In this document: positions 6,977-63,590 of the stretch, piece by piece
How positions within the stretch are numbered: the first letter of the stretch is position 1
How the letters are laid out: every line of letters begins with the position of its first letter
Assembly: GCA_030529135.1 (NCBI GenBank)
Contig: JAUMXO010000001.1
Span: forward strand, 15,335 to 79,334
From: Candidatus Saccharimonadota bacterium
Lineage (GTDB): Bacteria; Patescibacteriota; Saccharimonadia; Saccharimonadales; Saccharimonadaceae
DNA: 64,000 nt
Reading direction: 5' to 3'
Notes under the pieces: generated by a model
What the model was told of the DNA's origin: nothing
Seen by the model: only the letters and a program-made list of their open reading frames with translations
Databases searched by the model: none
Translations under genes and position numbers: made by a program

Positions 6977-7038
6977 TCCATTTGTCAAGGATTTCTTGAT
7001 AACTGAACCGCGAAAAAAATTTTTTGCAATTCACCACC

Positions 7039-7073
7039 TCTTGAACTTGTAAAATTTTTGTACAAGTTCAAGA
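7039..7073 (+). promoter_or_regulatory. palindromic operator-like site over the promoter of the RhuM-Fic gene
   Basis: TCTTGAACTTGTA-N9-TACAAGTTCAAGA perfect 13-bp arms, just upstream of TGCTACAAT extended -10 (7079-7087). Confidence 0.65.
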
Positions 7074-7094: not shown

Positions 7095-8087
7095 ATGAGT
7101 AATAAATTAGAAGTATACAAAATTGAAAAAGGCGAAATCGTCCTTGATATAGACGAAAAAAGTGAAACAATTTGGGCCACCCAAGCTCAAATTGCTCAAC
7201 TTTTTGATGTTAAACCTCAAAATATTACATATCATTTACGCAATATTTATAAAGAAAAAGAGCTTGACGAAAATCGAACTTGTAAAGAATCTTTACAAGT
7301 TCAAGAGGAGGGAGGAGTTTCGGTAAAGCGCAAAGTAAAAATGTACGATCTCGACGCCATCATCTCCGTTGGCTACCGTGTCAATTCCAAAAAAGCCACC
7401 GATTTCCGTATCTGGTCTACCTCTGTTCTTCATAATTATCTTGCCAAAGGCGTCGCTATTAACGAAAAGCGCCTCAAATCCGCCGACAGCAAAAGGTTAA
7501 AAGAAGTCGAAAACATGATGGGCGTTGTGAGACGCCTGATCGCCCACCAGGCTCTTGATGCTGGCGAAGCTAACGGCGTTTTAGAAGTAATTTCTAAATA
7601 TTCCACCAGCTTCCAGACTCTAAAAGAATACGATGATGGTTATATTGATCTTTCTGGCCTCAACAAAAAATCCAAAAAAGAAAAGAGGCTTACCCCAGAA
7701 TTTTGCATTGAGGTCATCGAAGGTCTCAAAAAATCCGTTAAAGGCGGTGATTTATTTGGCAAACCTAGAAACGACGCTTTCAAAGGCTCCATCGAAGGCG
7801 TCTATCAGAGTTATAATGGAGAAGACCTTTATCCTACTGTTGCCGAAAAGGCCGCTCATCTCTTGTATTTTGTCATCAAAGACCACCCCTTTTACGACGG
7901 CAATAAACGCATTGGCTCGTTGCTCTTCATCGTTTTTCTTACAATCAATGGCGAAAATCTTGCTAAAAACGGTGAGACCAAAATCAGCGACCGTGCTCTT
8001 ACCGCTCTAGCTCTGTTGATCGCCGAGTCGGAACCTACAGAAAAAGATCTCATTACCTCTCTCATCCGCAAGCTCTTAGAAGATTAA
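7095..8087 (+). CDS. RhuM-family protein fused to Fic/Doc domain
   Basis: TIWATQAQIAQLF...YDLDAIISVGYRVNS (RhuM); HPFYDGNKRIG (Fic/Doc). Confidence 0.88.
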   Translation: MSNKLEVYKIEKGEIVLDIDEKSETIWATQAQIAQLFDVKPQNITYHLRNIYKEKELDENRTCKESLQVQEEGGVSVKRKVKMYDLDAIISVGYRVNSKKATDFRIWSTSVLHNYLAKGVAINEKRLKSADSKRLKEVENMMGVVRRLIAHQALDAGEANGVLEVISKYSTSFQTLKEYDDGYIDLSGLNKKSKKEKRLTPEFCIEVIEGLKKSVKGGDLFGKPRNDAFKGSIEGVYQSYNGEDLYPTVAEKAAHLLYFVIKDHPFYDGNKRIGSLLFIVFLTINGENLAKNGETKISDRALTALALLIAESEPTEKDLITSLIRKLLED

Positions 8088-11284: not shown

Positions 11285-11822
11285 CAGTTGCCTCTTCCAA
11301 TTCTTCAATCGTACCATTATTTAATACGTAATAATCTGCCGCTGCGATTGGCCCACCTTTTTCTAGATTTTCGATTTCAGACCGATCGCGTTCTCGAATT
11401 GCTGCTGCATCAAAGGCCCTACCCGGTCTCACTGCCACCCTATCATAACGTAAATTTTTATCTACCACCACTGCTAGAAAAGTCAAAGCCTTTGGGAATT
11501 CGTGTTTTAAAGTGCAATATTCCGTCCAAGAATAGACCCCGTCAAGCACAATTCTCTTTTGTCCAGCAGCAATCAAATCTTTCGTCTCGGCAATCACTTG
11601 TCTTACTACCCAATCCTTGCCTTCCTTTTCACGGATTTCCTCACGGAATTTTTTCTCACTCTCGCCATCTTCGGTACGTTCAATCCCTCGTTTCTCCATC
11701 TCTTTATAAATCATCCCACCAAAATATACTTTCGGATAGCCTTTGGAAGTTAAATAATCCACGATTACCGATTTGCCACTCCCACTCATTCCCACAATTG
11801 CTAGTATTTTTACATTATCCAT
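11256..11822 (-). CDS. P-loop nucleotide kinase, dephospho-CoA kinase-like
   Basis: IVGMSGSGKS, IVLDGVYS, RDRSEIE, ADYYVLNNG; start ATG 11822 behind TGGTATACT. Confidence 0.75.
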   Translation of the reverse strand: MDNVKILAIVGMSGSGKSVIVDYLTSKGYPKVYFGGMIYKEMEKRGIERTEDGESEKKFREEIREKEGKDWVVRQVIAETKDLIAAGQKRIVLDGVYSWTEYCTLKHEFPKALTFLAVVVDKNLRYDRVAVRPGRAFDAAAIRERDRSEIENLEKGGPIAAADYYVLNNGTIEELEEATAKVLKEIEF

Positions 11823-11835
11823 AAGATAAGTATAC

Positions 11836-11958
11836 CACAAAAGCTAAATCTCGGGACATCAAGCAAAAAATCTTTGATTTTTTGCGCGCGGAGGTGTAGT
11901 GTCGTGATATAATCGAAGATTGATCACGACACGAAACTCCTGAGATTTAGCTTTTGTG
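11836..11958 (+). repeat. intergenic palindromic element (21-bp arms, two inner hairpins)
   Basis: Arms 11836-11856 / 11938-11958 (20/21); hairpins 11863-11885 and 11899-11932 with c-GAA-g loop. Confidence 0.8.
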
Positions 11959-11971
11959 ATATAATATACCT

Positions 11972-12784
11972 ATGCGTAATTTTTTTACGACCAAGGATCC
12001 GCTTGATCAAATTATCACGGACACTATGCCAGATAAGAAAATCGAAAAAACTGAGCATATCTTAACTGGCTGGACGAATATTGTTATAGAAGTGACTACT
12101 GATAAAGGTTCGTACTTTTTCCGTTTTCCGAGAAACCCATTTTGGTCGCGTATGATTGTCAAAGACGCCGCCGTTTGTAATTTTGTAGAAGGGAAGACCA
12201 GCTACTATACTCCACAAATGGAGCTGCATTACGACAAACACAAACGTCCGTTTTCTGTACACAAAAAAATCGAAGGCTATACTTTAGGCGATCGCATCTA
12301 TCATCTAAGTCATACTGCGCTTACTGGCGTAGCTTATGATACTGCCAAATTTATCAAAGAACTTTCCGGTATTGATCTTCGTGGCGCACCCAAAGAGGTT
12401 CAGATGCCTCTCTCCGAATTTCTGTATGAGCTAGATCACGAGCATTACAAAAAACATATCGACAAAGACCATGATTATATCAAAAAGACCGAAGAAAACA
12501 AATTGGTTCATGGCGACCTCAATCTCGGCAATATTTTATTAGATGAAAACGATAAAGTTATTGGCGTGATTGATTTTTGTTTTGCTGGTACTGGTAATCC
12601 CCAGATGGATACTGCCAGAATGTTGTCTCGCCCCGTCCCTGAAGGATTTGAAGAAATTTTCCTTTCTCAATTCGTTGATACTTCTGAGGTAGACAGAATG
12701 AAAACCGCCTGGAAACATATCGATGCCGGCTACGCCGAACACATCCGCAGCAATTTCCCCGAAATCAACCTCAATCAGCTCTAG
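11972..12784 (+). CDS. aminoglycoside phosphotransferase / choline kinase family protein
   Basis: FFRFP, HGDLNLGNILL, GVIDF motifs. Confidence 0.82.
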   Translation: MRNFFTTKDPLDQIITDTMPDKKIEKTEHILTGWTNIVIEVTTDKGSYFFRFPRNPFWSRMIVKDAAVCNFVEGKTSYYTPQMELHYDKHKRPFSVHKKIEGYTLGDRIYHLSHTALTGVAYDTAKFIKELSGIDLRGAPKEVQMPLSEFLYELDHEHYKKHIDKDHDYIKKTEENKLVHGDLNLGNILLDENDKVIGVIDFCFAGTGNPQMDTARMLSRPVPEGFEEIFLSQFVDTSEVDRMKTAWKHIDAGYAEHIRSNFPEINLNQL

Positions 12785-12866: not shown

Positions 12867-13859
12867 ATGCCAAAAAACATCACCGACAAAATTTACACCA
12901 TCCGTGGGCAGAAAGTGATACTGGACTACGATTTAGCGGAGCTCTATGGTTACGAGACAAAAGCATTCAATCGTCAAGTCCAAAGGAATATAGAAAAATT
13001 TAAAGGCGAAGAGTTTATGTTCCAGCTAACAAAACTGGAAGCGGAGCAATTTTCAAGGTCAAAAAATTTGACCTCAAATTCGGAAACCGGAATCTTGAGG
13101 TGCCAAAATGTCACCTCAAGTTGGGGCGGCGCTAGGTACCTCCCCCACGCCTTCACCGAACAGGGTATTTATATGCTCATGACCGTTTTAAAAGGTGAGC
13201 TCGCCACCAAACAAAGCCGCGCCCTTGTTATGACTTTCAAGGCCATGAAAGACTACATCATCAGCCACCAGTCTGTAGTTTCAAAAGTCATAGACAACTC
13301 CAAAGACATCGCCAAGATCAAAACCGAAATCAATCAAATCGCCAGCGAAATGACCGGCGTAGTTAAAAAATCTGAAATTTCTCCTATTCTTCTAGATTTT
13401 GCCAAAGTCGCCGAAACCAAAGAGTTTTTAATTTTAAATGGTGAACCAATGAGAGCCAAAGAAACCTACCAAGATATTCTTAGTAAGGCCGAAAAGCGAA
13501 TTTATATCATAGACAATTATATCAGCATCAAAACTCTCCGCCTTCTCCAGGCCGCTAGGCCAAACATAGAAGTGATATTTTTTAGCGACAATGTCGGGAG
13601 TTGTCTCTACGGCAGCGACGTCAAAGATTTTAAAAAAGATCGAAAAGATCTCAAGATCAAATTCATCCGAACTAACAATGCGGTTCACGACAGATTTATC
13701 ATCATCGATGGTGAAAAGTTCTACCATTGTGGCGCCTCGTCAAAAGACGCAGGGAAGAGAATCGCCATCCTCCACGAAATCACCGACAAACAAATTGTCA
13801 AAATCATCAAAGGTATTGTTATTAAAATGGCAAACAACAGAGAACTGATTTTAAAGTAG
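12867..13859 (+). CDS. ORF6N-domain DNA-binding protein with C-terminal PLD-like region
   Basis: IYTIRGQKVILDYDLAELYGYETKAFNRQVQRN, RYLPHAFTEQG; HDRFIIID. Confidence 0.85.
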   Translation: MPKNITDKIYTIRGQKVILDYDLAELYGYETKAFNRQVQRNIEKFKGEEFMFQLTKLEAEQFSRSKNLTSNSETGILRCQNVTSSWGGARYLPHAFTEQGIYMLMTVLKGELATKQSRALVMTFKAMKDYIISHQSVVSKVIDNSKDIAKIKTEINQIASEMTGVVKKSEISPILLDFAKVAETKEFLILNGEPMRAKETYQDILSKAEKRIYIIDNYISIKTLRLLQAARPNIEVIFFSDNVGSCLYGSDVKDFKKDRKDLKIKFIRTNNAVHDRFIIIDGEKFYHCGASSKDAGKRIAILHEITDKQIVKIIKGIVIKMANNRELILK

Positions 13860-16424: not shown

Positions 16425-18860
16425 ATGAACCGGCTAGTTTTAATTGATGGAAAATCTGTCTTTTACCGTGGCTATTATGCCATGGGAGCCTTGAGCCTCC
16501 CAGATGGCACACCAACCGGTGGCATCTATGGCTTTGCCGCCATCGCTATGGAAATTGTTAAAAAGTTAAATCCTAGCAAAATTGTGGTGGCCTGGGATTC
16601 AAAAACTTCCACCGCTAAGAGAAAAGCCATCTACGAAGACTACAAAGCTGGCCGCGTCAAACCAGGCGAAGATTTTTACACTCAAATTCCTTTGCTAAAA
16701 AGACTAATCAACGATCTTGGCTGGTCCTTTATTGAACTAGACAATTACGAGGCCGACGACATTATAGGAACTCTCTCAAAGCAAGCCGACGAAGCGAAAA
16801 ATTACGAAACTTATATCATTTCTTCTGACCTCGATATGCTCCAAATTGTAGATGAAAATACTCATATGTGGCGCATTTTAAAAGGTTTTTCTAATATTGA
16901 AAAAATCGATGTCAAAGAAATTGAAGAGAAATATGGTATCAAAAAAAATCAATTCCTAGATTTAAAAGCCTTAAAGGGCGACTCTTCGGATAATATCCCT
17001 GGCGTCCCAGGCATTGGCGAAAAAACCGCAGCCAAGCTCCTAAACGATTATGGCACCCTAGAAAATATTTATCAGAATTTAGATAAAATCACCGGCTCGA
17101 CTAAAACCAAACTCGAAGCCGGCAAAGATTCTGCCATGATGTCCAAAAAGCTCGCCGAAATTATGTTCGACGCCCCAATCAACCTAACAACCATCCCAGA
17201 CTTCGAGTTCAACAAAGACAAGGTAATTAACGGCTTAAAGAAACTCCAATTCAACTCTCTCATCCGGAAAATTGGTGGGGGGCTTGGGAATAGTGTTTCC
17301 GAGACCGTCCGCGACAACGGGAGCGGAATGAGCGAGGAGCCCCGTGACGACGGGCGCGACGAAGCGCGTCGAGAAAACACTATCCCAAGCCCTGCGAGCG
17401 GCCCGTCCCGAGAGAGCGCCATTTCAAGCTCTAACGACACAATCTTGGATTGGGACATCAAGGGCTTAATGCACGAGAAAACAGAAATTGCCAAGAAAAT
17501 AGAATCCGGTGCAAAATACTGGGATCTTGGCCAAGCCGAATTTCTATTGAACCCTCTAGACCGCGGTCAATCGGACAAATATGACCCCATGGATTTCCGG
17601 ATGGCCTACCAAGTTCAGTACAGGGAACTAACCAAGATCCCTCGCCTATATAATATATATACCGAATTCGATCTTCCTCTCATACCAGTTCTCTACAAAA
17701 TGGAGATAAAGGGTATGCTGATAGATCGCGACTATTTTGCCAAACTTCGCACAGAATATGAAGAAGAGCTTCACACCCTTGAACAAAAAATTTACACTCT
17801 CTCGGGTATAACTTTTAATATCAACTCTCCAATCCAGTTGTCTGAAGTGTTGTTTATGCATCTAGGGCTCGCTACTAAGGGAATCAAAAAGACCACGCGC
17901 GGTTACTCAACCGGTGCAAAAGAATTAGACAAGCTAAAAAACGAGCATCCAATAATTAAAGAAATTATTAAATATCGCGAGACTAGCAAGCTTTTAAATA
18001 CTTATATTATTCCGATGCCAGACCTTGCAGATGACAATGACCGTATCCACACTACCTTTACGCAAAATGTGACTTCTACTGGTAGATTGAGTAGTAAAGA
18101 TCCTAATCTTCAAAATATCCCAGTTCGAACAGAAGAAGGAAAACGAATTCGTGCTGGTTTTGTTGCGCCAAAAGGCAAAAAACTAGTCTCTGCAGATTAT
18201 TCTCAGTTTGAGCTTCGTCTTGCCGCTATCATGTCGGGCGACCAGAGTCTCATCGATGATTTTAATAACAGTATTGATATTCACACTAAAACTGCTTCCG
18301 AAGCTTTCCACACCCCAATAAACCAGGTCACCAAGAATCAACGTCGCGCTGCTAAGGCTATCAATTTTGGCATTATTTATGGCATGAGCATTAATGGCCT
18401 AGCTGAAGCCACCAAAATGAATTTTTACGACGCCAAACGGTTCATGGATAACTACCAAAAACTTCGTGCGCCTATCATGGATTTTATGAAAAAAACTTTA
18501 GAAAAGGCTCGTACTGATGGCTACGTAGAAACTTATTTTGGGCGTCGTCGCCCTACTCCGGATGTCAAATCATCTAATTTTTTGATTAGAACCGCTGCTG
18601 AGCGCGCTGCGGGGAACATGCCAATTCAGGGAACAGAAGCCGATCTGATGAAACGTGCCATGATTAATATCGATAAAAAACTTCCAAAAAATGCCAACTT
18701 AATTATGCAGGTCCACGACTCTTTGATCGTGGAATGTGACGAAAAAGACACCGACGAAATTAGCCAAATTTTAAAACAAGAAATGGAGCAAGTAGCACCA
18801 GAGCTAAAAGTTAAATTGGCCGTAGATGTTACGATAGGCGACAATTGGGGTGAACTATAA
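16425..18860 (+). CDS. polA: DNA polymerase I (with in-frame palindromic insert in the linker)
   Basis: LIDGKS, YEADDIIG, GDSSDNIPGVPGIG, SADYSQFELR, AKAINFGIIYG, QVHDSL. Confidence 0.96.
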   Translation: MNRLVLIDGKSVFYRGYYAMGALSLPDGTPTGGIYGFAAIAMEIVKKLNPSKIVVAWDSKTSTAKRKAIYEDYKAGRVKPGEDFYTQIPLLKRLINDLGWSFIELDNYEADDIIGTLSKQADEAKNYETYIISSDLDMLQIVDENTHMWRILKGFSNIEKIDVKEIEEKYGIKKNQFLDLKALKGDSSDNIPGVPGIGEKTAAKLLNDYGTLENIYQNLDKITGSTKTKLEAGKDSAMMSKKLAEIMFDAPINLTTIPDFEFNKDKVINGLKKLQFNSLIRKIGGGLGNSVSETVRDNGSGMSEEPRDDGRDEARRENTIPSPASGPSRESAISSSNDTILDWDIKGLMHEKTEIAKKIESGAKYWDLGQAEFLLNPLDRGQSDKYDPMDFRMAYQVQYRELTKIPRLYNIYTEFDLPLIPVLYKMEIKGMLIDRDYFAKLRTEYEEELHTLEQKIYTLSGITFNINSPIQLSEVLFMHLGLATKGIKKTTRGYSTGAKELDKLKNEHPIIKEIIKYRETSKLLNTYIIPMPDLADDNDRIHTTFTQNVTSTGRLSSKDPNLQNIPVRTEEGKRIRAGFVAPKGKKLVSADYSQFELRLAAIMSGDQSLIDDFNNSIDIHTKTASEAFHTPINQVTKNQRRAAKAINFGIIYGMSINGLAEATKMNFYDAKRFMDNYQKLRAPIMDFMKKTLEKARTDGYVETYFGRRRPTPDVKSSNFLIRTAAERAAGNMPIQGTEADLMKRAMINIDKKLPKNANLIMQVHDSLIVECDEKDTDEISQILKQEMEQVAPELKVKLAVDVTIGDNWGEL
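17280..17392 (+). repeat. GC-rich palindromic element, in-frame in polA
   Basis: Arms 17280-17298 / 17375-17392 (18 bp plus bulged A); core motifs shared with ileS and 29376 copies. Confidence 0.85.
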
Positions 18861-25467: not shown

Positions 25468-28400
25468 GTGTCTGGCATTCCTAGCCAACAATCCAGTAGT
25501 ACTACTTCTACTAGCGTTACTCTTTCAAGTGCAGTTCCTATTAGAACTGGCTACACCTTTGCTGGTTGGTGTTATGGTACTGTAAACACTACTGGTACCC
25601 ATCCAGGCACTACATGTTCTGGCACTCCAGGTACTACTCATGCCGCCAGTAGCTCACTTGCTTTCATAGACCAGACTGCTACTGGCAGTAGTGCTAATAC
25701 TATTACTTTGCAGGCTTTATGGACGGTAAAAACTTATACCATTGCCCTAAATGCTAATGGTGGCAGTGGTGGCTCGTCTTCTACTACCGTAGGCTACAAA
25801 GATACTACACTAGGCACTATTACTAATCCTACCAAATCTAACACTACTAACACCAGAACTATTAGTGGCCTAGCTGCTAATGGTACTAATGCTTCTGGTG
25901 CTACAGTTACCTTCCAAAGTAGTGGCAACTGTACTAGTACTTCTAATTGTAAATCCACTAGTACTACTACCTATACCCTTAACGGCTGGTATAAAGAACA
26001 AGGTGCTACTAACAAAATAGCTAGCAATGCTACTATTCCAGCTCTTCAAGCCAGTACTACCTATACCAACTCTTCTTCGCAATGGACCTATACGACTGCC
26101 TCTGCTGTTACTTTGTATGCTGGCTGGAGTTCTAGCACCGGCAGCTATAGTTCTGTAAATCTTCCTACTATTACCAAGAGTGGTTATACATGCGGTTGGG
26201 CTACTTCTTCTACTGCTACTACTTGGGATTATATTTCTGGTGACACCATCACTCCTAATGGCAATATTACGCTTTATGGGACTTGCACTCCAAACAAATA
26301 TAATATTACCATTAAGACTGTCACTGGTATATCCAGTGTGTCCCTAAATGGCACATCTTGTAGTTCTACTTCTGGCTGTACAGTCTCTAATCTAACCTAT
26401 GGACAATCCTATACTCTTACTGCTACTGCTGCTACTGGTTATAACTTTAGTTCTTGGAATGCTGGTTCTTATGGCTCTATTGCAAACACTTCTAGCGCAA
26501 GTACTACCTACACTGTAGGGGCGGGAGCTAGTACAATTACACCTAGTGCTACTGCCGCCAACTACAATATTACCATTAAAACCGCTACTGGCATTCAAAG
26601 TGTTGTGGTAAGAAACACCAATAATCAATCTACGGTATGTAGCACCACTTCTACAACTGGCACAGCTTGCTCACTTACTTATGGTACAACATATAGAATA
26701 AATGCTAATGCCGCTATGGGCTATACGTTCAGTAGTTGGTCTAATAGCGCTAGTCTTGGGACGCTAGGTAGTACAACATCCGCGCATACTAGCTATATCC
26801 CAGGTGCAGGCGCCACTACCCTTACTCCGTCTGCTTCAGCAAAGACTTATACTGTTACCCTCAAAACTAACACCGGTATATCCAGCGTATCGCTTAAGAA
26901 TTCTGGTGGTACAACTATTTGTACCGCAACTAACACTACTGGTACTAGTTGTAGCGTCACTTATGGGCAAAGCTATACCATAGTCGCTTCCATGTCTACT
27001 GGCTATAATTTTAGCAGTTGGGGAAGCAATGATATCGTCCAATATTCCCACACCCCAAATGTCAATGATGCAGGTACTTCTAGCGGTGGCTATGGCGATT
27101 ATCTAGATATGAATCAAGTCATTAGCATTCCAGGCGCAAGTTCACTTAATATTACTCTGGCATATGAGACAGAAAGTACGAGTTATGACTGGGCTAGCTT
27201 CTGGTCTGGCAGTTATCCAACTTATTCTGCATATAATAATTATTCTACCGGTATAGTAGTATCTGGTACTGGTAGTGCTGGCGGTAAATATGGTGATGAT
27301 AGCTGGAACTCTATAATATACGATCTTAATAATACTACTGCCACTTTTGGTTTCAGATCAGATAGTAGTGAAAGTGACTACTACGGCTATCGTGCTACCG
27401 TTCGCGGCACGACTTCATCTAATTTTGGGAGTACCACTAGTAGCAGTACCACATATGCTATTTACGGCGACACCACTGTACAACCTAATGCCGCCACTGT
27501 CAAATCTTACACTATTACGCTTAATGGCAATGGCGGGACTCTCGGCTCTACTTCAACTACTGTACGTTATGGCAACACAACGCTTGGAGCTATTACTAAT
27601 CCAAGTAGAGCTAATACTACGGTTAGCCGTACGCTCTCCGGCTTTACGGCGGGCACTAATGCCTCTGGTGCTAGCATTTCCAGTACTTCTACCCTCACTA
27701 GTTCTGCTACTGTATCTTATACCTTTAATGGTTGGTATAAAGAATCTAGTGCTACAAATAAAATTGCTTCTAACGCTACTACGCCAGCTCTTCAAGCCAG
27801 TACTACCTATACTGATCCTTCAGGTAGATGGACCTATGATTCTGGTTCAACTCTTTATGCCGGCTGGAGCTCTAGTACTGGTAGTTATAGCAGCGTCACC
27901 ATGCCAACTATTACTAAAACTGGCCATACTTGTGGTTGGGCTACATCTTCTACTTCTACTAGCTGGAAATATACCTCAGGACAGACTAATGTCGTTCCTG
28001 ATTCTTCCACGACGCTTTATGGTACTTGTGTAGCAAATACTTATAGTCTCGCTATCACCTTTGCGGGAACTGGGGTATCTAGTGTGCAAGTCAGGACAGC
28101 ATCAGGTACTGGCGGGACGCTTAAAGGTACTGTATCCACCAGCGGTGGTAGTGTGTCTGGACTAACCTATAATACTGCTTATTATTTATACCCTACCTTT
28201 ACTAACGGATATGAACTCAATAGCTGGGCTAAAACCAGCACCACTGGTACACTTAGTTCTACAACCGCAAGCAACCCTACCTTTACTATGGGGGCTGGAA
28301 ATGGGGCGGTGACGATTACGGGAAAAGCAACACCAGTTTATATGCAAAACTGGGCTGGATGCTCAGCGGCCACTGAAGGCGTAGGGATTACTCTTACGGA

Positions 28401-29082
28401 TTCTCGCGATGGACAAACATACACTGTAGCAAAACTAAAAGACGGCAACTGCTGGATGGTGGATAATTTAAATCTTGGCTCGTCTTCATTGTCTGTAGAT
28501 TTAACTAGTAGCAACACTAATTTAAGTACCACTGTCACTGCAGCTACATTTAATGGTTGGATCAAAACTACAAGTACTTTTATATCTTCATATACGGCAG
28601 GGTCCTTAGCTCCTATATCTGGTACCGACTCTGGCAGCGGGAGCAAATACGGTGCAATATATAATTATTGTGCCGCAACTGCTGGCACATTTTGTAGTTC
28701 ATCAACATCAGGAGATGCCACTTCGGATCTCTGCCCGGCCGGTTGGAGACTACCCTATGGCTATGCTCGTGATAGTCATGTAAATGAATTTTCTCAACTA
28801 GCTACTGCATATGGTGGTAGCGAGTCCACTGGTGCAAAAAATATGCACAATTCTCTCGCTAATGGAGGCGCAGCATTCAATTTTGCTGGTTATTATTACT
28901 ACTCTACCAGTAGCTACACTAATCAAGGAAGCCAGGGCTACTATTGGTCTTCTTCTAGAAACAGCTCTGAAGGGGCGACTTTAAAGCGGATACTTAGAAT
29001 TACGTCTTCCAGTACCATTTATCCTGGTTCAACTACTAGTAACTCTCGTAATGGCAACTCAATTCGCTGTATTAAAAAATAA
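25468..29082 (+). CDS. Ser/Thr-rich surface protein with InlB-B/Flg_new-like repeats and C-terminal FISUMP-like domain
   Basis: GYTFAGW/YTLNGWY repeats; DSRDGQTYTVAKLKDGNCWMVDNL, LCPAGWRLP, GYYWSS. Confidence 0.85.
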   Translation: MSGIPSQQSSSTTSTSVTLSSAVPIRTGYTFAGWCYGTVNTTGTHPGTTCSGTPGTTHAASSSLAFIDQTATGSSANTITLQALWTVKTYTIALNANGGSGGSSSTTVGYKDTTLGTITNPTKSNTTNTRTISGLAANGTNASGATVTFQSSGNCTSTSNCKSTSTTTYTLNGWYKEQGATNKIASNATIPALQASTTYTNSSSQWTYTTASAVTLYAGWSSSTGSYSSVNLPTITKSGYTCGWATSSTATTWDYISGDTITPNGNITLYGTCTPNKYNITIKTVTGISSVSLNGTSCSSTSGCTVSNLTYGQSYTLTATAATGYNFSSWNAGSYGSIANTSSASTTYTVGAGASTITPSATAANYNITIKTATGIQSVVVRNTNNQSTVCSTTSTTGTACSLTYGTTYRINANAAMGYTFSSWSNSASLGTLGSTTSAHTSYIPGAGATTLTPSASAKTYTVTLKTNTGISSVSLKNSGGTTICTATNTTGTSCSVTYGQSYTIVASMSTGYNFSSWGSNDIVQYSHTPNVNDAGTSSGGYGDYLDMNQVISIPGASSLNITLAYETESTSYDWASFWSGSYPTYSAYNNYSTGIVVSGTGSAGGKYGDDSWNSIIYDLNNTTATFGFRSDSSESDYYGYRATVRGTTSSNFGSTTSSSTTYAIYGDTTVQPNAATVKSYTITLNGNGGTLGSTSTTVRYGNTTLGAITNPSRANTTVSRTLSGFTAGTNASGASISSTSTLTSSATVSYTFNGWYKESSATNKIASNATTPALQASTTYTDPSGRWTYDSGSTLYAGWSSSTGSYSSVTMPTITKTGHTCGWATSSTSTSWKYTSGQTNVVPDSSTTLYGTCVANTYSLAITFAGTGVSSVQVRTASGTGGTLKGTVSTSGGSVSGLTYNTAYYLYPTFTNGYELNSWAKTSTTGTLSSTTASNPTFTMGAGNGAVTITGKATPVYMQNWAGCSAATEGVGITLTDSRDGQTYTVAKLKDGNCWMVDNLNLGSSSLSVDLTSSNTNLSTTVTAATFNGWIKTTSTFISSYTAGSLAPISGTDSGSGSKYGAIYNYCAATAGTFCSSSTSGDATSDLCPAGWRLPYGYARDSHVNEFSQLATAYGGSESTGAKNMHNSLANGGAAFNFAGYYYYSTSSYTNQGSQGYYWSSSRNSSEGATLKRILRITSSSTIYPGSTTSNSRNGNSIRCIKK

Positions 29083-29154: not shown

Positions 29155-29373
29155 ATGGCTATAAAAGTAACTAGAAAAGATCAGGGTGAGGCAAACGAGA
29201 ATATTATTCGTCGTTTCAACCGTAAAGTCCTTCAGGGCGGTGTAATGCCACTCAAGAAGTCTCAGATGCGTTTTTCGAAGCCTATTTCCAAGCGCGAGCG
29301 AAGATTAAAGGCTATCATCAGGGAAGCACGCAAGACCGAAAAAACCGAGCGTATCAAATTAGGACTAAAATAA
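29155..29373 (+). CDS. rpsU: 30S ribosomal protein S21
   Basis: ENIIRRFNRKV...RFSKPISKRERR. Confidence 0.85.
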   Translation: MAIKVTRKDQGEANENIIRRFNRKVLQGGVMPLKKSQMRFSKPISKRERRLKAIIREARKTEKTERIKLGLK

Positions 29374-29375
29374 GA

Positions 29376-29522
29376 GATTCAGAGAAGGTGCTTTCGAGAC
29401 CCTCTTGCGACGACGGGAGCAAGAAGGGCGAAGCGCTCCCCGTAACGCTCGCCCCTTGGGACGCGAATTGCCGAAGGCAAACGGGCGAGCGCAAGCGCGT
29501 CGAGAAAGCACCTCTCTGAATC
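29376..29522 (+). repeat. GC-rich palindromic element between rpsU and adk
   Basis: Arms 29376-29395 / 29504-29522 (19 bp plus bulged A); several inner hairpins incl. TTGCC-GAA-GGCAA. Confidence 0.88.
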
Positions 29523-29545
29523 CTTTTTTATGTTATAATGTAGAT

Positions 29546-37062: not shown

Positions 37063-40000
37063 ATGAAATATAGAGCGGGAGAGCGCCGAAAGGCGATAGA
37101 GTATGAAAAGGCTCTCATCGATTGGTGGAAGAAAAATAAAACTTTTGAAAAATCTATCGAAGAGCGGCCAGAAGATAAATCTTATGTTTTTTATGATGGT
37201 CCACCATTCATTACTGGCATGCCTCATCATGGAACGCTTTTGAGTTCCATTGTTAAAGATGCCGTTCCGCGTTTTTGGACTATGCGTGGTTACAGAGTAG
37301 AGAGAAGATGGGGCTGGGATTGCCACGGCCTTCCTGCTGAAAATTTTGTTGAAAAACAACTTGGTATTACTGATAGAAGAGAAATCGGCACCAAGTGGTC
37401 GCTAGAAGACTACATTACCAAAGCTCGCGAATCCATGGTTGCTAATTCTGAAGAATGGCGTAGCACCATTGATCGTTGCGGTCGGTGGGTAGATTTTGAT
37501 AACCCCTATCGTACCATGAATAAAGATTTTATGGAATCTGTCTGGTGGGCTTTCAAGAAGCTATATGATGCTGGCAAGATTTACGAAGGTCGCAAGGTCC
37601 TAATGTATGACACCAAGTTTGCCACTCCTGTTTCAAAAGCCGAAGTCACTATGGATAACGACGCCTATCAAACCGTCACTGACCCAAGTGCGTACGTTAA
37701 GTTTAAACTTAGAAATTCGGAAGATACTCTTTCGAGGAGCATATTTGGCGACGAGCCAAATACGAAGCGATTGAGCCCCGTAACGATGGGCGCGAAGGAG
37801 CGTTCCGAGAAAGACGTATCTCCGGATTTCTACTTCTTAGCTTGGACTACCACCCCTTGGACTTTGATGGCCAATCGTGCTCTTGCAATCAGCAAAAAGA
37901 TGGAATATGGTGTTTATGACATAGACGGTCAGAAACTTATCGTTGCCACTAAGCGTGCTGAACAAATTTTTGGCTCAAACCCTCCCGAAAGAGTATTAAA
38001 GGGAAAAGAGCTAGAAGGTCTAGAATATGAATCGTTAGATGGTACCAAGTGTAAAGTTTTTGCCGCAGACTTTGTAGGTGAAGAAGAGGGTACCGGCATC
38101 GTTCATGTTGCCCCAGCTTACGGCGAAGATGATTACGAATTGTTCAGAGCTCACGAAAAAGAAATTGACTTCGTGGATACTTTAGACGAAAACGGTTATT
38201 ATATAAAAGAATACGCTGACAAACTTCACAAATTAGGCGTCCGCGACACCGATGAGCATGGCATCCAAATCTGGGCCGCCAACAAATTTATTGCCAAATG
38301 CCTAGAAGAAAAAGGAATTATCTATAAAATTGAATATATTCAGCATGAATACCCATTCAACCCTAGAAGCAAAGAACGTATTATGTATCGCGCTTTCCCG
38401 TCTTGGTTCTTTGATATCGAAGGCCAAAAGCCCTTAATGCTAGCCGAAAACGAAAATATCAACTGGTTTCCAGGATATCTCAAGCACGGTCGCTTTGCCA
38501 AAAATATCGAAGCCGCACCGGACTGGAATCTCTCTCGTGATCGTTTTTGGGCTACTGCCATGCCAGTTTGGAAGGGTGACAAAGGCTCGATCAAAGTTGT
38601 AGGCTCATATAAAGAGCTAGAAGAGTTATCAGGAAAGAGACTCGAAGATTATCATCGTCCATGGGTAGACGAAATTGAATTTGATATTAAAGGCGAACAT
38701 TTTACTCGTATTGAAAAAGTGCTCGACTGCTGGTTTGAATCTGGCTCCATGCCGTTTGCTCAGCTACATTATCCATTCGAGAATAAGGAAAAATTTGAAA
38801 AAAACTATCCTGCCGATTTTATCGTAGAATATGTCGGCCAGGTTCGCGCCTGGTTCTACTACGTACATGTAGTTAATACCGCTCTTGCCGACATCGGAGC
38901 CTTCGGTGACAAGGCTAAAAACGGTCACAAAAACGCGTACAAAAATGTGATCACTACCGGTACATTAGCCGGGAACGATGGCCGCAAGATGAGTAAATCC
39001 CTTGGTAACTATACCGATCCAAACGAACTTATGGATCAATATTCTGCCGACGCTTACAGATTTTTGCTCCTCATGAGCCCGGTCATGTCTGGCGAAGATT
39101 TTGCCATGTTGGATAAGGATGTTTCCGACATTAATCGTAAACTTGCAATGCTCTGGAACGTCTACGATTTCTTTACTACTTATGCCGAAATTGAAAATCT
39201 CGGCCCGGAGGATTTTGATAAACCTATCCGACTCAAATCTCCTCTAGACAATTGGATTACCCAGCGTTTTTACCAACTTCGTGATGAAATCACTACTGGT
39301 ATGGAAGAATACAACATACCAAAGGCGCTCCAAGGTGTTCTTCCGTTTATTGACGACTTGTCCAACTGGTATGTTCGTCGTTCTCGTCGTCGTTTTTCTA
39401 AAAACGATAATCAAGAAGATAAACTCGCCGCTTTTTACACGCTTTATTCCATGCTCAAGATGACCGCTATTATCCTCGCACCATTTACCCCGTTTCTCTC
39501 AGAAGAATTGTATCAAAAAATCACTATGAAAGAAGATTCGGTTCATCTATTAGCTTGGCCAGCCGCCATTGATGACGAGTCAATCCATGATACCATTCTA
39601 TCTGACATGACTCGTACCCGCCAGATTATTACAGATGCCTTAGCTCTTAGAATGCAAAAATCCGATACCGAGGATCAAATCAAGGTTCGCCAGCCACTTG
39701 CATCGCTAGTATATGACGGTGACAAGCTAGACAATTTTTATGAGCAGATTATTAAGGACGAAGTCAACGTTAAAGAAGTCAAAAATGGCAAAGAATTAAA
39801 ACTAGACAAGACCCTCACGAAAGAATTAAGGGAAGAAGGCTATGTTCGTGATCTCATTCGTGCGGTCCAATCTGCTAGAAAACATGCCGGTCTTCAAATG
39901 GACGACCATATTAAGCTTAGTCTTTCCGTCGAGATTCCAAAAGATTACATAGAGCTTGTGAAAACCGAAGTTTTAGCAGACACGATTGATGACGGCAACT

Positions 40001-40065
40001 ACGCCCACGATGAAATTGCCAAAATAGGGAAAGATAATATAACTATCTCGTTAGAGAAAAATTAA
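37063..40065 (+). CDS. ileS: isoleucine-tRNA ligase (type 2-like) with in-frame palindromic insert
   Basis: FYDGPPFITGMPHHG, WGWDCHGLP, AWTTTPWTL, DWNLSRDRFW, KMSKS. Confidence 0.96.
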   Translation: MKYRAGERRKAIEYEKALIDWWKKNKTFEKSIEERPEDKSYVFYDGPPFITGMPHHGTLLSSIVKDAVPRFWTMRGYRVERRWGWDCHGLPAENFVEKQLGITDRREIGTKWSLEDYITKARESMVANSEEWRSTIDRCGRWVDFDNPYRTMNKDFMESVWWAFKKLYDAGKIYEGRKVLMYDTKFATPVSKAEVTMDNDAYQTVTDPSAYVKFKLRNSEDTLSRSIFGDEPNTKRLSPVTMGAKERSEKDVSPDFYFLAWTTTPWTLMANRALAISKKMEYGVYDIDGQKLIVATKRAEQIFGSNPPERVLKGKELEGLEYESLDGTKCKVFAADFVGEEEGTGIVHVAPAYGEDDYELFRAHEKEIDFVDTLDENGYYIKEYADKLHKLGVRDTDEHGIQIWAANKFIAKCLEEKGIIYKIEYIQHEYPFNPRSKERIMYRAFPSWFFDIEGQKPLMLAENENINWFPGYLKHGRFAKNIEAAPDWNLSRDRFWATAMPVWKGDKGSIKVVGSYKELEELSGKRLEDYHRPWVDEIEFDIKGEHFTRIEKVLDCWFESGSMPFAQLHYPFENKEKFEKNYPADFIVEYVGQVRAWFYYVHVVNTALADIGAFGDKAKNGHKNAYKNVITTGTLAGNDGRKMSKSLGNYTDPNELMDQYSADAYRFLLLMSPVMSGEDFAMLDKDVSDINRKLAMLWNVYDFFTTYAEIENLGPEDFDKPIRLKSPLDNWITQRFYQLRDEITTGMEEYNIPKALQGVLPFIDDLSNWYVRRSRRRFSKNDNQEDKLAAFYTLYSMLKMTAIILAPFTPFLSEELYQKITMKEDSVHLLAWPAAIDDESIHDTILSDMTRTRQIITDALALRMQKSDTEDQIKVRQPLASLVYDGDKLDNFYEQIIKDEVNVKEVKNGKELKLDKTLTKELREEGYVRDLIRAVQSARKHAGLQMDDHIKLSLSVEIPKDYIELVKTEVLADTIDDGNYAHDEIAKIGKDNITISLEKN
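37711..37831 (+). repeat. GC-rich palindromic element, in-frame in ileS
   Basis: Imperfect arms 37711-37733 / 37809-37831; TATTTGGC-GACGA-GCCAAATA hairpin; 21/23 match to polA copy core. Confidence 0.85.
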
Positions 40066-40228
40066 AGTAGTTTTTGTGAGCATAATGAGATCTAGACCAG
40101 ATTTTTGAACGTAATTTTTACGGCATAACAATGTAAAAATATTCCAGAATTATAAGAATATTTTTACTTGACTTTATGCTGTGAAAATTACAAGTTCAAA
40201 AGTCCAAGCTCACAAAAACTACTTTAAT
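40061..40228. repeat. long AT-rich imperfect hairpin after ileS
   Basis: Perfect 21-bp arms 40061-40081 / 40208-40228, second helix about 40103-40128 / 40174-40201, inner 12-bp helix 40133-40144 / 40156-40167. Confidence 0.8.
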
Positions 40229-40265
40229 TTATATCTGTTACGCAGCTATTTAACCATAAAAGGTA

Positions 40266-40936: not shown

Positions 40937-41266
40937 ATGGAATCATATCTTGTCGATCCGGCAGTTCTAGGGGAATTTGTGGACGCTCTCATCAGCGAAA
41001 AATACCCAGATCAGCCAGCTAGCGACCATACTAGCGAAAAAGAAGACGCAGTTCGTGCGTTAGACCATCAAATTTTAAAGGCTATCCTTGCGAATCTGAC
41101 CGAAGAACAGGGTAGTGAACTGAATCAACTCCTAGATAACGAAGGTTCTAACGAATCTACTTTTGAAGAATTTTTCAAAAAACACAATATCGATTTGAAA
41201 AAAACAATCGAAGATACCATGGTTAAATTCAGAGACGATTTTTTAAGAGGAGGTGAAAATGCCTAA
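40937..41266 (+). CDS. hypothetical acidic protein (109 aa)
   Basis: Open frame, overlaps next gene start. Confidence 0.7.
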   Translation: MESYLVDPAVLGEFVDALISEKYPDQPASDHTSEKEDAVRALDHQILKAILANLTEEQGSELNQLLDNEGSNESTFEEFFKKHNIDLKKTIEDTMVKFRDDFLRGGENA

Positions 41267-43025
41267 AAATCCAGAACTATCAAGTGGCAATCCTGGTGAG
41301 TCAAAGGAAGCTAGCAACGAGGCTATTAATAAAGAACGTGGCAATAAAGTCAATAATATTGAAGCCCTGCTCAGAAGGCGCGAAGAATTACTAAAAAGAC
41401 GAGAATATCTAGAAGGAATTATTCGTCAGCTTGATAGCGAGGTAAAATCACCAGTATCCACGTCTGAACCAACTAAAGCCGAAGCTTCGGCATCCAATAT
41501 AACATCCGTTGCGGGCGAAGCCGAATCTACTGCCGCAAAAGATGAATCATCAGAAGAAGATAAAACTTCAAAGTCAGAAACTGCCCCAACGCCAAGTAAT
41601 CTCGGCGAAAAAATTAAGAAAAAATCTGGCCTTAGGAATTTAATTACCGGCATCGCCGCTGGTCTTGCTGTTACTATTTTTGCAGGCGGGTTTATGGCTA
41701 GTTACAACAAAAATGCCAAAGCCGCCGCACTTGCTGGCGGTGGAGCCGTACCAAAAGTTGAATCAGAAGTCGCTAATGAGAACTCGGTAGAAAATACTCA
41801 GTATGCCGGCGAAACTATTAATGGCGTTAAGTATGACTATACAGAATATGCTGACCGAAAAAATAAAGTTTCATATAACGCCTATGGTTATGACTATTCC
41901 GACCAATATGATAATAGGGAGGCTGCTACCAATGGTATTATGCGCATGGCCGGAGAAGAACCAGAAGCGCTCGCTTCCTATGCATATAATATATTTACCG
42001 ATACAGAGAAGGAAGAGCTGAATATTAAAGGCTTATCCATGGTAGAGATTGATGATAAATTTAATTCAGCTGGCGGCGGTGAGCTGCAGAAGAATCTTTT
42101 GGGTAAGCTAGATCAAGTTTTGAGGAGTGAAAAAACTAATTTTAGATTTTATCACGAAAATGGCACCGAAGAAACTAATTATGTTTATTTTGTAGATAGC
42201 AATAAAGACGGTAATTATACTCCAGACGAGCTGCATCTTGGTTACGACACTAAGAAACGCAGCAACGCTCCTCAGGTAGACATTTCTCGTACTATCGAGA
42301 ACTCAGATGGTACGACTAAGACACAAAAAATGCTTGATCTTAATATGAAGTGTGGCTATCAGCCAAATTATCAGAAGGCTCCAATAGGCGTGCCGCCGAT
42401 ACCTGCCGATAAACCAGTAGCTCAAGTTATCAAGGGGGGCGGTGCTGCCCAAATTATCAAAGGTGGCGGTCCAAATACTCCGACCCCGACGCCAAAACCA
42501 GAGCCAAAACCAAAGCCAAAACCAGATCCTAAGCCAGAGAAACATATACCGAAGAATGTTGAAGCTGAAAAACAAAATGCTGGCGATCGTGTTACCCCAT
42601 TGCCAATTGATAATAAAGTCACTCCGCCAACTACCGAAGCTGAAGATCGCAAAAACTTTGATGCTATAGCCGAACAACAACGACAACAGCAAGCCGCCGC
42701 CGAACAGGCTGCCCGTGTAGCAGCTGAACAAGCCGCCGCTGAGCAGGCCGCCGCTGCCGAAGCCGCTGCTAGAGCCAAAGCCGACGAAGAAGCTGCTCAG
42801 GCTCAAGCTGCCAACGAGGCCGCTGCTAGAGCTGCAGAAGAAGCCGCTCGCGCTCAGGAAGAAGCAAATCGACAAGAAGCAGAACAACGAGCTCAAGAAG
42901 AGGCAGCTCAGCAGGCTCAGGCAGAAGCCGATGCTCAAGCTGAGCAAAACAATCAGGAAGCTGAATCACATAATGATGATAACGCTAGCGAACGTGCTGC
43001 AGACTTCAATAGTGGAGATTTCTAA
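41259..43025 (+). CDS. single-pass membrane protein with Pro-Lys linker and Ala/Glu/Gln-rich helical tail
   Basis: GGAGG RBS; TM LITGIAAGLAVTIFAGGFMA; PKPEPKPKP; AAEQ repeats. Confidence 0.8.
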   Translation: MPKNPELSSGNPGESKEASNEAINKERGNKVNNIEALLRRREELLKRREYLEGIIRQLDSEVKSPVSTSEPTKAEASASNITSVAGEAESTAAKDESSEEDKTSKSETAPTPSNLGEKIKKKSGLRNLITGIAAGLAVTIFAGGFMASYNKNAKAAALAGGGAVPKVESEVANENSVENTQYAGETINGVKYDYTEYADRKNKVSYNAYGYDYSDQYDNREAATNGIMRMAGEEPEALASYAYNIFTDTEKEELNIKGLSMVEIDDKFNSAGGGELQKNLLGKLDQVLRSEKTNFRFYHENGTEETNYVYFVDSNKDGNYTPDELHLGYDTKKRSNAPQVDISRTIENSDGTTKTQKMLDLNMKCGYQPNYQKAPIGVPPIPADKPVAQVIKGGGAAQIIKGGGPNTPTPTPKPEPKPKPKPDPKPEKHIPKNVEAEKQNAGDRVTPLPIDNKVTPPTTEAEDRKNFDAIAEQQRQQQAAAEQAARVAAEQAAAEQAAAAEAAARAKADEEAAQAQAANEAAARAAEEAARAQEEANRQEAEQRAQEEAAQQAQAEADAQAEQNNQEAESHNDDNASERAADFNSGDF

Positions 43026-45998: not shown

Positions 45999-46559
45999 AT
46001 GTACGGACCTACAGATCTAAAGAAAAATACCCTCGTGACGATAGATGGCCAGCCGTATAAGGTGGTAGAATACTCGCAAAAAGTCATGGGTCGTGGCGGT
46101 TCTATCGTTAATGTCAAAGTAAAAAATCTCATCACCGGTGCGCTTTTGCCAAAGACTTTTAAGGGTCAAGAAAAAATTGAGCCAGCCGAAGTCACTACCA
46201 AAAAAGTACAATATTTGTATAATGATGGCGAAAAATTCTATTTTATGGATCCAGAATCTTTCGAACAGTATGAACTTCAAAAAGATATGGTCGGCGAGTC
46301 TAAAGATTTTATGAAAGAAGGTGACGAAATGGAAATCCAGTTTTACAATGGCACCCCAATTAATCTAGTGCTCCCGAAAAATCTTTGGCTCAAAGTTACC
46401 TATACCGAAACCGCAGTAAAGGGTGATACTACTAGCTCCGTAATGAAAGACGCTACCTTAGAAACTGGTGTGGTGGTCAAAGTGCCAGCTTTCATCAAAG
46501 AAGGTGATATTGTCTCAGTAGATACGGACACCTATGAATATCGCGAGCGTAAAAAATAG
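45999..46559 (+). CDS. efp: elongation factor P
   Basis: VMGRGGSIV, YFMDPESFEQ, ATLETG, VKVPAFIKEGD. Confidence 0.95.
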   Translation: MYGPTDLKKNTLVTIDGQPYKVVEYSQKVMGRGGSIVNVKVKNLITGALLPKTFKGQEKIEPAEVTTKKVQYLYNDGEKFYFMDPESFEQYELQKDMVGESKDFMKEGDEMEIQFYNGTPINLVLPKNLWLKVTYTETAVKGDTTSSVMKDATLETGVVVKVPAFIKEGDIVSVDTDTYEYRERKK

Positions 46560-47238
46560 AGGTTATTTCAAAATTGAGGGCGCTGTACGCGCCTTCAATT
46601 TTGATTTCAAAGACAAAGTAGTTTTAGACATTGGCTCTTCCACTGGCGGTTTTACTCAATATGCCCTAGATCACGGCGCCAAAAAAGTCTTCGCCGTAGA
46701 AAAGGGAACCAATCAAATGAAAGAACCCCTCCGTTCCAACCCACGCATCGAACTCCACGAAAAAACTGATATTTTTGATGTAGGAATACAAGATAGTTCT
46801 AACCGAGGGACTCCGGAGCGCGGCAGCGCGAGGATGAGCGCGCTGTCCCCGTGGCAGACCGCCCCTTGGGACGCGGACGACTCGAAGAGTCGACGGGCGA
46901 CGGCGACGCGGCCCGATGTAGAACTATCTTGTATTCCAGACATAATTCTAGCAGACGTTTCCTTCATTTCTCTCACCAAGCTTTTAAAATACGCCAAAGA
47001 AAATCTATCTAATAAAAACACAGATTTTTTAGTTATGTTAAAACCTCAATTTGAGGCAGAAGAAAAAGACTTACATAATGGTATCGTCAAAAACGAAACC
47101 ATCAGAAGGGATATTATTAAAAAATTTGAAAATTGGCTCAAAAACAACAATTTCGTGGTTTTAAAGAAGAAAGACAATATTATGCATGGCAAGCATGGTA
47201 ACACAGAAAGATTCTACTGGTTGAAACAATCAAAATAG
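46534..47238 (+). CDS. tlyA: TlyA-family rRNA methyltransferase (no S4 domain) with in-frame palindromic insert
   Basis: VLDIGSSTGGFT, DVSFISL, LKPQFE, GNTE. Confidence 0.85.
   Translation: MNIASVKNRGYFKIEGAVRAFNFDFKDKVVLDIGSSTGGFTQYALDHGAKKVFAVEKGTNQMKEPLRSNPRIELHEKTDIFDVGIQDSSNRGTPERGSARMSALSPWQTAPWDADDSKSRRATATRPDVELSCIPDIILADVSFISLTKLLKYAKENLSNKNTDFLVMLKPQFEAEEKDLHNGIVKNETIRRDIIKKFENWLKNNNFVVLKKKDNIMHGKHGNTERFYWLKQSK
46783..46937 (+). repeat. GC-rich palindromic element, in-frame in tlyA
   Basis: Perfect 19-bp arms 46783-46801 / 46919-46937; 16-nt identity with 29376 copy; GACTC-GAA-GAGTC hairpin. Confidence 0.9.
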
Positions 47239-63547: not shown

Positions 63548-63590
63548 TTGTTTTTGTTTTATAATAACTTGTGTTATAATTATAAGTATT

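Follow-up and report, generated by a model that had tools for sequence, protein, structure and literature searches.

Small GC-rich multi-helix palindromic elements, probably mobile, in genes and spacers of ruminant-gut Saccharibacteria

The stretch of DNA analysed here, called the window, comprises 64,000 nucleotides of contig JAUMXO010000001.1 from a Saccharibacterium, whose nearest public loci belong to metagenome-assembled genomes of Candidatus Nanosyncoccus (TM7 G3) from goat, sheep, cattle, yak and buffalo gut. The spacer between rpsU and adk contains a type A element of the long form (29375-29523, + strand), a stretch of about 65-70% GC in a window of 41.5% GC, which folds as a single long hairpin. 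A small hairpin inside it, P4, is likely to be one module of small palindromic insertion elements, non-coding, GC-rich and multi-helix, which form a family in these ruminant-gut Saccharibacteria. The rpsU stop codon is at 29371-29373 and the element starts at 29375 or 29376, leaving a gap of 1-2 nt. On its 3' side follow six T residues (29524-29529), a box that resembles a -10 promoter sequence, TGTTATAAT, and the adk ATG at 29546. The left outer arm of the element (29375-29395), which is AT-rich and specific to this locus, pairs with the right outer arm (29503-29523), and between them lies the core (29396-29502), the GC-rich repeated and mobile unit, with C-GA-G on each side giving a tandem G.A internal loop. 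Helix P2 (29433-29492; GCGCTCCCCGT pairing with ACGGGCGAGCGC), identified by covariation and by RNAalifold, encloses a module of two hairpins on the + strand. Hairpin P3 (29449-29466), in the 16-mer described below, is formed by 4 bp, an AC bulge, 2 bp and a CTTG loop, and hairpin P4 (29468-29480) by the sequence TTGCC-GAA-GGCAA.

The 16-mer CGCCCCTTGGGACGCG occurs exactly twice in the window, at 29450-29465 and at 46860-46875 inside tlyA, both on the + strand, while 0.17 occurrences with up to 3 mismatches are expected by chance. In the rpsU-adk copy it is followed by AA, TTGCC (29468-29472), GAA (29473-29475), GGCAA (29476-29480) and ACGGGCGA, and in the tlyA copy by GAC, GACTC (46879-46883), GAA (46884-46886), GAGTC (46887-46891), G and ACGGGCGA. 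The tlyA P4 (46879-46891, + strand) has in addition a sixth pair, C46878-G46892. Four of the five stem positions differ between the two copies, each change is compensated on the other side, and the GAA loop is retained. The initial annotation had reported the shared 16-mer and a stem that is altered yet still paired around the same loop, and the sequence bears this out; the stems and loop that it gave are correct, while the AA and GAC linkers were left out of its description. Its further remark that elements begin just past the stop codons of rpsU and rplU agrees with the coordinates, since the element after rplU (stop codon 63447-63449) starts at 63451, a gap of 1 nt.

According to searches with nhmmer profiles, the window contains five copies, each of them on the + strand. 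These profiles and motif regular expressions were used in place of detection by GC islands and minimum-free-energy hairpins, which was dropped as too unspecific. The tlyA element, also a type A long form (46783-46937), lies in frame in the open reading frame (ORF) 46534-47238. Its left arm (46783-46801) is an inverted copy of its right arm (46919-46937, TAGAACTATCTTGTATTCC), which is present in the empty allele discussed below and encodes the native TlyA residues E-L-S-C-I-P. The polA element (17279-17394) is a type A short form, without P3 and P4, and is in frame in the polA linker (ORF 16425-18860); its repeated core runs from about 17296 to about 17381, as judged from contig depth and loose ends. 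Another type A short form (37712-37832) is in frame in ileS (ORF 37063-40065). The three genic copies of the window are all read through. The element downstream of rplU (63451-63548) represents the type B subfamily, with CTTGGCC-TGAGC-GGCC and the hairpin GTGTCC-GAA-GGACAC (loop 63519-63521), and T-runs follow on its 3' side (63551-63560); it has only the architecture and this GNA-loop hairpin in common with type A, without the 16-mer. A GC-rich stretch that adjoins the polA element (17394-17425, + strand; GCGAGCGGCCCGTCCCGAGAGAGCGCC) is the probable 3' half of an older core, and in runs X4 and X7 the same stretch is preceded by ...CCGTGAAGACGGGA, which is a different complete core. The genes were named from Pfam matches to S21 (weak, 25.8 bits), Adk, L21, PolA and IleS, and TlyA from PF01728 together with source names.

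Elements of the family measure 97-155 nt and contain 4-5 helices. The outermost layer is an AT-rich outer stem of 12-28 bp, inside which most type A copies have a symmetric C-GA-G / C-GA-G internal loop (tandem G.A). Further inward, the type A core holds a variable hairpin, P1, and then the long GC-rich helix P2 with two conserved bulged bases, which is capped by a tetraloop-sized turn in the short form and by the two-hairpin module in the long form, P3 having a CTTG loop and an AC bulge and P4 a GNA triloop. The type B core reads AAGACTTGGCC-N4-5-GGCCYGGAGCG and is sometimes followed by a P4-like hairpin, GTGTCC-GAA/GGA-GGACAC. At 4074-4108 of locus L117, contigs of other copies (runs X54 and X57) skip exactly 33 nt of core, which correspond to P3 and P4, so that one clean module is what separates the long form from the short. 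P1 modules vary, and nested or composite copies occur. The mobile unit is a core of roughly 50-120 nt, bounded in type A mostly by GA-GGGG...CCCC-GA, and it is built from exchangeable modules, namely P1, P2 and the optional pair of P3 (CTTG loop) and P4 (GNA loop). Rfam searches of the whole window at the gathering threshold gave two tRNAs and chance matches only, with no family for the element, and searches in E-value mode of the element and three other loci gave no family match.

Very stable DNA mini-hairpins are typified by C-G-closed GNA triloops and by tandem G.A pairs of the sheared kind, and CUUG is a classic RNA tetraloop; the element carries loop motifs of both the DNA type (GNA triloop, tandem G.A) and the RNA type (CTTG). 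Folded as RNA, the 149-nt rpsU-adk element has an energy of -80.1 kcal/mol against -51.4 +/- 4.0 for its shuffles (z = -7.1), and folded as DNA it has a z-score of -7.15. RNA, DNA and the opposite strand have equal z-scores, which thus do not tell RNA from DNA. Counts of G.U against A.C mismatches, a test of strand-specific RNA selection, were symmetric between strands and uninformative. A single marginal metatranscriptome was the only RNA run found, and it does not cover the element.

Covariation was measured in alignment A3, which contains 16 sequences: the two window copies, the copy of locus L005 and 13 relatives recovered by a metagenome scan. The scan pattern, GCCCCTTGGGACGC-N11-33-ACGGGC, gave 47 loci, of which these 13, on contigs of 39-49% GC, are true relatives and the remainder chance matches in GC-rich DNA. 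As the 16-mer and ACGGGC are imposed by the pattern, only the other columns of A3 are informative. Paired cells amount to 90.9%, compared with 75.0% in shuffles, both sides have changed in 15 of the 26 pairs, and none of 500 shuffles matched the observed values on any measure; controls in which the partner was slid reached at most 43% pairing. P4 covaries at all five pairs, with 98.8% of its cells paired, and occurs as TTGCC/GGCAA, TGGCC/GGCCA, TGGTC/GACCA, AAGCC/GGCTT, GACTC/GAGTC, GACCC/GGGTC and CGACC/GGTCG, around loops that are mostly GAA and otherwise GTA, GCA, ACA or TCC. P2 covaries at 9 of 15 pairs, and the outer pair of P3 is T-A in the rpsU-adk copy and C-G in the tlyA type. RNAalifold independently gives the same helices as the pair counting. 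The initial annotation had named beforehand such an analysis of a larger alignment as the test that could refute its reading, and on these 16 sequences covariation was found.

Compensated changes could also arise mechanically, by template switching within quasi-palindromes (a form of intrastrand gene conversion), in which one arm is rewritten from the other with no selection on the fold. The outer arms seem indeed to have been made by copying, both strands fold equally well, and the mismatch counts are symmetric between strands, which speaks for this process. It would also be expected to mend asymmetries, yet the bulged C and A of P2, the AC bulge of P3, the tandem G.A and the purine-rich GNA loops stand uncorrected in all copies and have not been mended into perfect palindromes. 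In addition, cores from different loci reach identities of up to 93%, whereas the arms resemble random sequence. The persistent asymmetries and the alike cores with random-like arms indicate constraint on core sequence and fold, and template switching is therefore an unlikely source of the covariation. The compensatory changes more probably reflect selection on the single-stranded fold of a propagating intermediate, DNA or RNA, than a host function at each locus.

What is conserved is the nucleic acid and not a peptide. In sense orientation the long-form core is translated as ARPLGRELPKANG in seven copies and as APWDA..RRQTG in two, and in antisense orientation as RPKGRAPRA-like peptides in four and SQGASVTG in one; two sense and two antisense frames are thus used, from which follows that conservation is at the level of the nucleic acid. 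TlyA orthologues carry inserts at the same site in different frames. In the AlphaFold model of TlyA, the one case in which compatibility of the insert with the fold as a surface loop was examined, insert residues 88-125 have a predicted local distance difference test (pLDDT) score below 50 and form a disordered loop, and the remaining fold scores 86-97. In the same model, the arm-encoded residues 83-85 and 129-131 (window 46783-46791 and 46921-46929) form short strands at the base of the insert. The use of several frames and the disorder of the loop led to the rejection of a function at the peptide level. The 40-residue insert peptide gave no match in a word-index protein search and a single match in an exhaustive HMMER search, for which the query is too short to reach significance among 1.8 billion proteins. 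The proposal of the initial annotation that selection acts on a folded nucleic acid rather than on a peptide is therefore upheld, by the covariation, the several reading frames and the disordered TlyA insert.

Genomic placement was analysed for 40 copies, of which 29 are inside ORFs, 21 in sense and 8 in antisense orientation, and the other 11 are intergenic. Among the intergenic copies, 8 have no overlap with a gene end and start 2-36 nt past the upstream stop codon, and 3 overlap the 3' end of a gene. The host ORFs belong to at least 15 housekeeping protein families, 13 of them backed by Pfam or by a source name and 2 by flanking residues only. They are Amidase, class-V aminotransferase (Aminotran_5), a pseudouridine synthase, MnmA, ArgS, TatD, QueA, exonuclease I, TruB and Tgt, found in the scan, the families TlyA, PolA and IleS, and a prepilin-peptidase-like and a TsaD-like ORF, which are the two recognised from flanking residues. 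MnmA, ArgS and QueA each occur as single proteins with two insertions (metagenome contigs L089, L092 and L095). The host frame stays open and free of stops through all 29 intragenic copies, although ascertainment favours such copies, and the indels measured in ORFs relative to alleles without the insert or with a different insert are 138, 123, 111, 105 and 30 nt, all multiples of 3. Core frames are free of stops in 55% of cases in sense and 72% in antisense. Copies survive where harm is slight, that is, in permissive loops, where they are in frame, stop-free and translated into disordered peptide, and in the first nucleotides past stop codons.

Removal of the insert from the product, by excision at the RNA level or by ribosome bypass as in the mitochondrial 'byp' elements and phage T4 gene 60, would leave the proteins without the extra peptide. 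A GC-rich hairpin within AT-rich coding sequence recalls such cases, and in tlyA the codons GAT GTA stand just before the insert and again at its end, so that a skip would give exactly the protein of L001, a syntenic contig without this insert. This matching codon pair was seen in tlyA only. The open frames of all 29 intragenic copies, even with the ascertainment noted above, led to the rejection of a translational bypass element, and the length of every measured indel in ORFs argues in the same direction. Since 55% of core sense frames are stop-free, the surviving copies look filtered by translation, and no match to a ribozyme or intron family was obtained. Excision or bypass is accordingly very improbable.

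Placement bears equally on the suggestion of the initial annotation that the elements act as host signals for mRNA stability or translation, in the manner of repetitive extragenic palindromic (REP) sequences. Under such a reading, hairpins past the stop codon would stabilise the upstream mRNA or terminate transcription, and the fold would be selected by the host. The positions of the 8 intergenic copies and of the 3 that overlap a gene 3' end are in its favour, as are the T-runs after the rpsU and rplU copies and the very stable fold (z = -7). In a related strain (run X26), moreover, the site directly past the rpsU stop, compared with window 29374-29400, is taken by a plain terminator-like hairpin, ATCCCCCGCGAGGGGTTTTCTTATG (CCCC-GCGA-GGGG and a T-run), and the whole element is missing there. 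Placement just past stop codons holds, however, only for this intergenic minority and not for most copies, 29 of 40 (72%) being inside ORFs and 8 of these antisense to the gene, and compact intergenic spacers with avoidance of the downstream promoter explain the post-stop positions equally well. Copies are also polymorphic between near-identical strains, the core is a high-copy repeat, a consensus terminator scan does not call the large rpsU and rplU hairpins, and the family is absent from most related genomes sampled. A host cis-regulatory role is on these grounds improbable, and this part of the initial annotation was not sustained.

An insertion element that spreads fits the distribution better. 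The contig depth of the core in ruminant gut runs (Logan) is 100-250 times that of its flanks; near 17296/17381 and 46808/46909 the core is joined to many different sequences, and contigs break at it. The tlyA copy is present in the window and absent from L001, which is 95-97% identical; the insertion amounts to 138 nt (46777-46914, the placement being ambiguous by the 7-nt repeat GATGTAG), and a contig of run X1 shows the same skip. A second pair of loci, L014 and L010, differs by an indel of 76 nt between flanks that are 99% and 87% identical. Beyond the window, 35 type A and 12 type B copies were found in 1.5 Mb with a very uneven spread: most of the 80 Nanosyncoccus loci sampled are without copies, and L089 has 3 copies in 2.6 kb, compared with 5 in the 64 kb of the window. 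An artefact of assembly or amplification was rejected, because runs and assemblies that are independent of each other show the same arms and because the copies lie in frame. A high-copy core, polymorphism between near-identical strains and the presence of intragenic and antisense copies are together the marks of a mobile selfish element.

The outer arms behave differently from the core. Left arms of 18 nt have 29% pairwise identity, which is the random level, and 33% GC, whereas cores have a mean pairwise identity of 57%, up to 93%, and 66% GC. The two arms of one copy pair at 13.9 of 18 positions, and arms of different copies at 7.4 of 18. The empty tlyA allele reads TTT-GATGTAG-AACTATCTTGTATTCC-AGAC, and in the filled allele GATGTAG is followed by an inverted copy of TAGAACTATCTTGTATTC, by the core and by a second GATGTAG. 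In the other pair, the empty allele reads AAATT-AAG-TATTTTTAGTTAGAC, and the 76 nt added in the filled allele consist of a 9-nt filler, GTCTAACTAAAAATACTT (an inverted copy of AAGTATTTTTAGTTAGAC) and a type B core, with an AAG repeat at both junctions. In both pairs the empty allele already has the downstream arm, only the upstream one being new, and the junctions show microhomology of 7 nt (GATGTAG) and 3 nt (AAG). No direct repeat lies outside the arms in the listed junctions, and the core is flanked by GA...GA. In TlyA, conserved residues of the native protein (C-x-P) are encoded by the downstream arm, as are the native D-K-L-V-A ahead of IGEVGLDY in the TatD of L117 and, as a partial case, the native D-F in IleS. 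Because of the two filled/empty pairs and this coding evidence, the outer stem was probably built from the target at insertion.

The opposite direction, in which the empty alleles are deletion derivatives of filled ones, is less likely. It needs two independent deletions, each with an endpoint no more than a few bases away from where the core meets the right arm, and for the tlyA of L001 it lost ground once the L014/L010 pair and the TatD arm had given the same geometry. Further filled and empty alleles of polA, L010 and L117 were looked for in Logan contigs and none was found, because the contigs break at the core.

The element probably acquires this stem on insertion, by inverted duplication of a target flank of about 15-20 nt, located downstream in the orientation of the gene. 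A nascent strand that ends in the self-folding core may prime on itself, snap-back synthesis would then copy the adjacent newly made DNA (15-20 nt) and so build the locus-specific stem, and synthesis would rejoin the template through a microhomology of a few bases. In this speculative and tentative proposal, the GC-rich core acts as a self-priming hairpin and spreads by such copying of the target strand, without a dedicated transposase. If true, it would represent replication-coupled DNA mobility with terminal inverted repeats templated by the target and would account for the unique and initially perfect arms of every copy. To our knowledge, target-templated terminal inverted repeats have not been described for any mobile element.

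Several observations weigh against this account of target-built arms or against the wider reading of the family as mobile insertion elements. In both allele pairs the direction, insertion or deletion, rests on geometry and coding arguments, with no outgroup, and searches for other copies of the arms within 10 kb of their own loci gave none above shuffled controls, which fits the model without proving it. No mobilising enzyme or autonomous partner turned up in the loci examined, where no systematic search was made. At one codon of ileS, the window (37712-37832) has a type A short core and L001 (1190-1300) a type B core with unrelated arms, between flanks 96-99% identical; arms simply taken from the flank do not explain this, and the site looks like one of rapid replacement or recurrent insertion at a single position. 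At the tlyA site, L003 (1011-1123) and L007 (10251-10361) have related arms, about 67% identical, around a core that is inverted, which the model does not explain; this could be due to recombination between the arms or equally to independent insertions that copied homologous flanks. Upstream of pilM, L010 (10774-10804) and L014 (10753-10783) carry a solo half-element, AACACTTAAATATTTATTTGTGGGGGCATCC, which is formed by a left arm and GGGGGCATCC, the first 10 nt of the type A core, and L010 also has, 58 nt upstream of this half-element, a full element whose left arm is almost identical. The model also leaves unexplained the polA copy that abuts the older half-core and the excess of sense (21) over antisense (8) copies, despite antisense frames being more often stop-free. 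The equal folding of RNA, DNA and both strands and the symmetric mismatch counts belong to the same side of the balance. The gene table of the 20-kb locus L001 lists no transposase, and the GC skew of the window gives no replication-strand signal.

Literature searches, including searches that named Saccharibacteria, turned up no description of such elements in this phylum. The closest functional analogues are the Rickettsia palindromic elements (RPEs) and the mitochondrial GC clusters and hairpin elements. Like RPEs, the elements are palindromic repeats of about 100-150 bp in the reduced genome of a host-dependent bacterium, have no known transposase and occur both between genes and in frame in many unrelated housekeeping ORFs, where the protein fold accommodates the extra peptide. 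Within one RPE family, the copies conserve the encoded peptide along their length (review PMC10969869). Unlike RPEs, the Saccharibacteria copies have only the core in common, with an outer stem that is unique to each locus and apparently copied from the target, and this core is read in several frames and both orientations and forms GC-rich islands in a genome of 41% GC. The likeness was judged from the description of RPEs.

The mitochondrial GC clusters (yeast GC42, PMC4478555) and the hairpin elements of sponge mitochondria (PMC2800124) are, as here, GC-rich hairpins that spread in AT-rich compact genomes, with a constrained fold, merging and shuffling of modules and a mechanism that is not known, a copy-and-paste route having been proposed. 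The dinucleotide repeated at the borders is AG in the yeast clusters (PMC4478555) and GA...GA in the Saccharibacteria elements. Some clusters insert in frame in the protein gene var1 (PMC4478555), and double-hairpin elements and 'byps' are further mitochondrial hairpin elements (cited in PMC4478555). The mitochondrial elements are organellar, however, and are mostly single or double hairpins of 30-60 nt, whereas those described here belong to a bacterial chromosome, measure 97-155 nt with 4-5 helices and are mostly intragenic. A long, locus-specific outer stem made from the target is not reported in PMC4478555 or PMC2800124.

REP sequences and bacterial interspersed mosaic elements (BIMEs), with their REP-associated tyrosine transposases (RAYTs; PMC3733652), are likewise short palindromic repeats that are thought to be active as folded single strands, some of them just downstream of genes. 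REP sequences measure 20-40 bp, are extragenic and have a GTAG or CGTC head (PMC3733652), and the Saccharibacteria elements have none of these three features; the listed junctions contain no GTAG or CGTC head, and the core termini are GA-GGGG...CCCC-GA or similar. Membership in the REP/BIME class was rejected for size, location and lack of the conserved head. [quoted passage not shown] MITEs have shared terminal inverted repeats and target-site duplications made by a cognate insertion-sequence transposase, while here the terminal arms differ in every copy. This class was rejected for the absence of conserved terminal repeats, left arms having 29% identity and cores 57-93%.

CPR (candidate phyla radiation) genomes are tiny and usually thought to be poor in repeats, and in the present case a selfish element has settled inside the genes for core enzymes, among them PolA, IleS, ArgS, TlyA, TatD, Tgt, QueA, MnmA and TruB, sometimes with two or three insertions per gene. 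This has consequences for gene calling, alignments of protein families, structure prediction and metagenome assembly, in which contigs break at the core. The elements add a case of bacterial protein-coding palindromes to that of Rickettsia, and a conserved, covarying structured core with an outer stem apparently templated by the target is a combination that is rarely seen. If this stem is made at insertion, the copies would represent a natural experiment in hairpin-primed DNA synthesis and a marker for recent insertions in uncultured episymbionts.

Other repeats and repeat-bearing genes are present in the window. Three AT-rich inverted repeats without a GC-rich core lie at 7034-7069 / 7276-7311, 11814-11856 / 11938-11980 and 40053-40081 / 40208-40236; their arms, of 29-43 nt, are 79-93% complementary and 81-206 nt apart, and one of them begins at the ileS stop codon. 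ORF 25468-29082 encodes a Ser/Thr/Gly-rich product of 1204 aa with Listeria-Bacteroides-type repeats (PF09479, PF18998), probably a surface protein, and contains an internal duplication of about 1.74 kb (25972-26240 against 27718-27980, 73-78% identical). At 42677-42867, in ORF 41253-43025, a GC-rich coding repeat (up to 73%), CAAGCCGCCGCCGAACAGGCTGCC, encodes an Ala/Gln/Glu-rich segment and has no relation to the hairpin elements. An isolated type B-like motif, TTTGGCCTAGCGGCCTGGAG, is found on the - strand at 13545-13568 in ORF 12867-13859, with no arms or hairpin (nhmmer E = 0.008), and is either a chance match or a decayed remnant.

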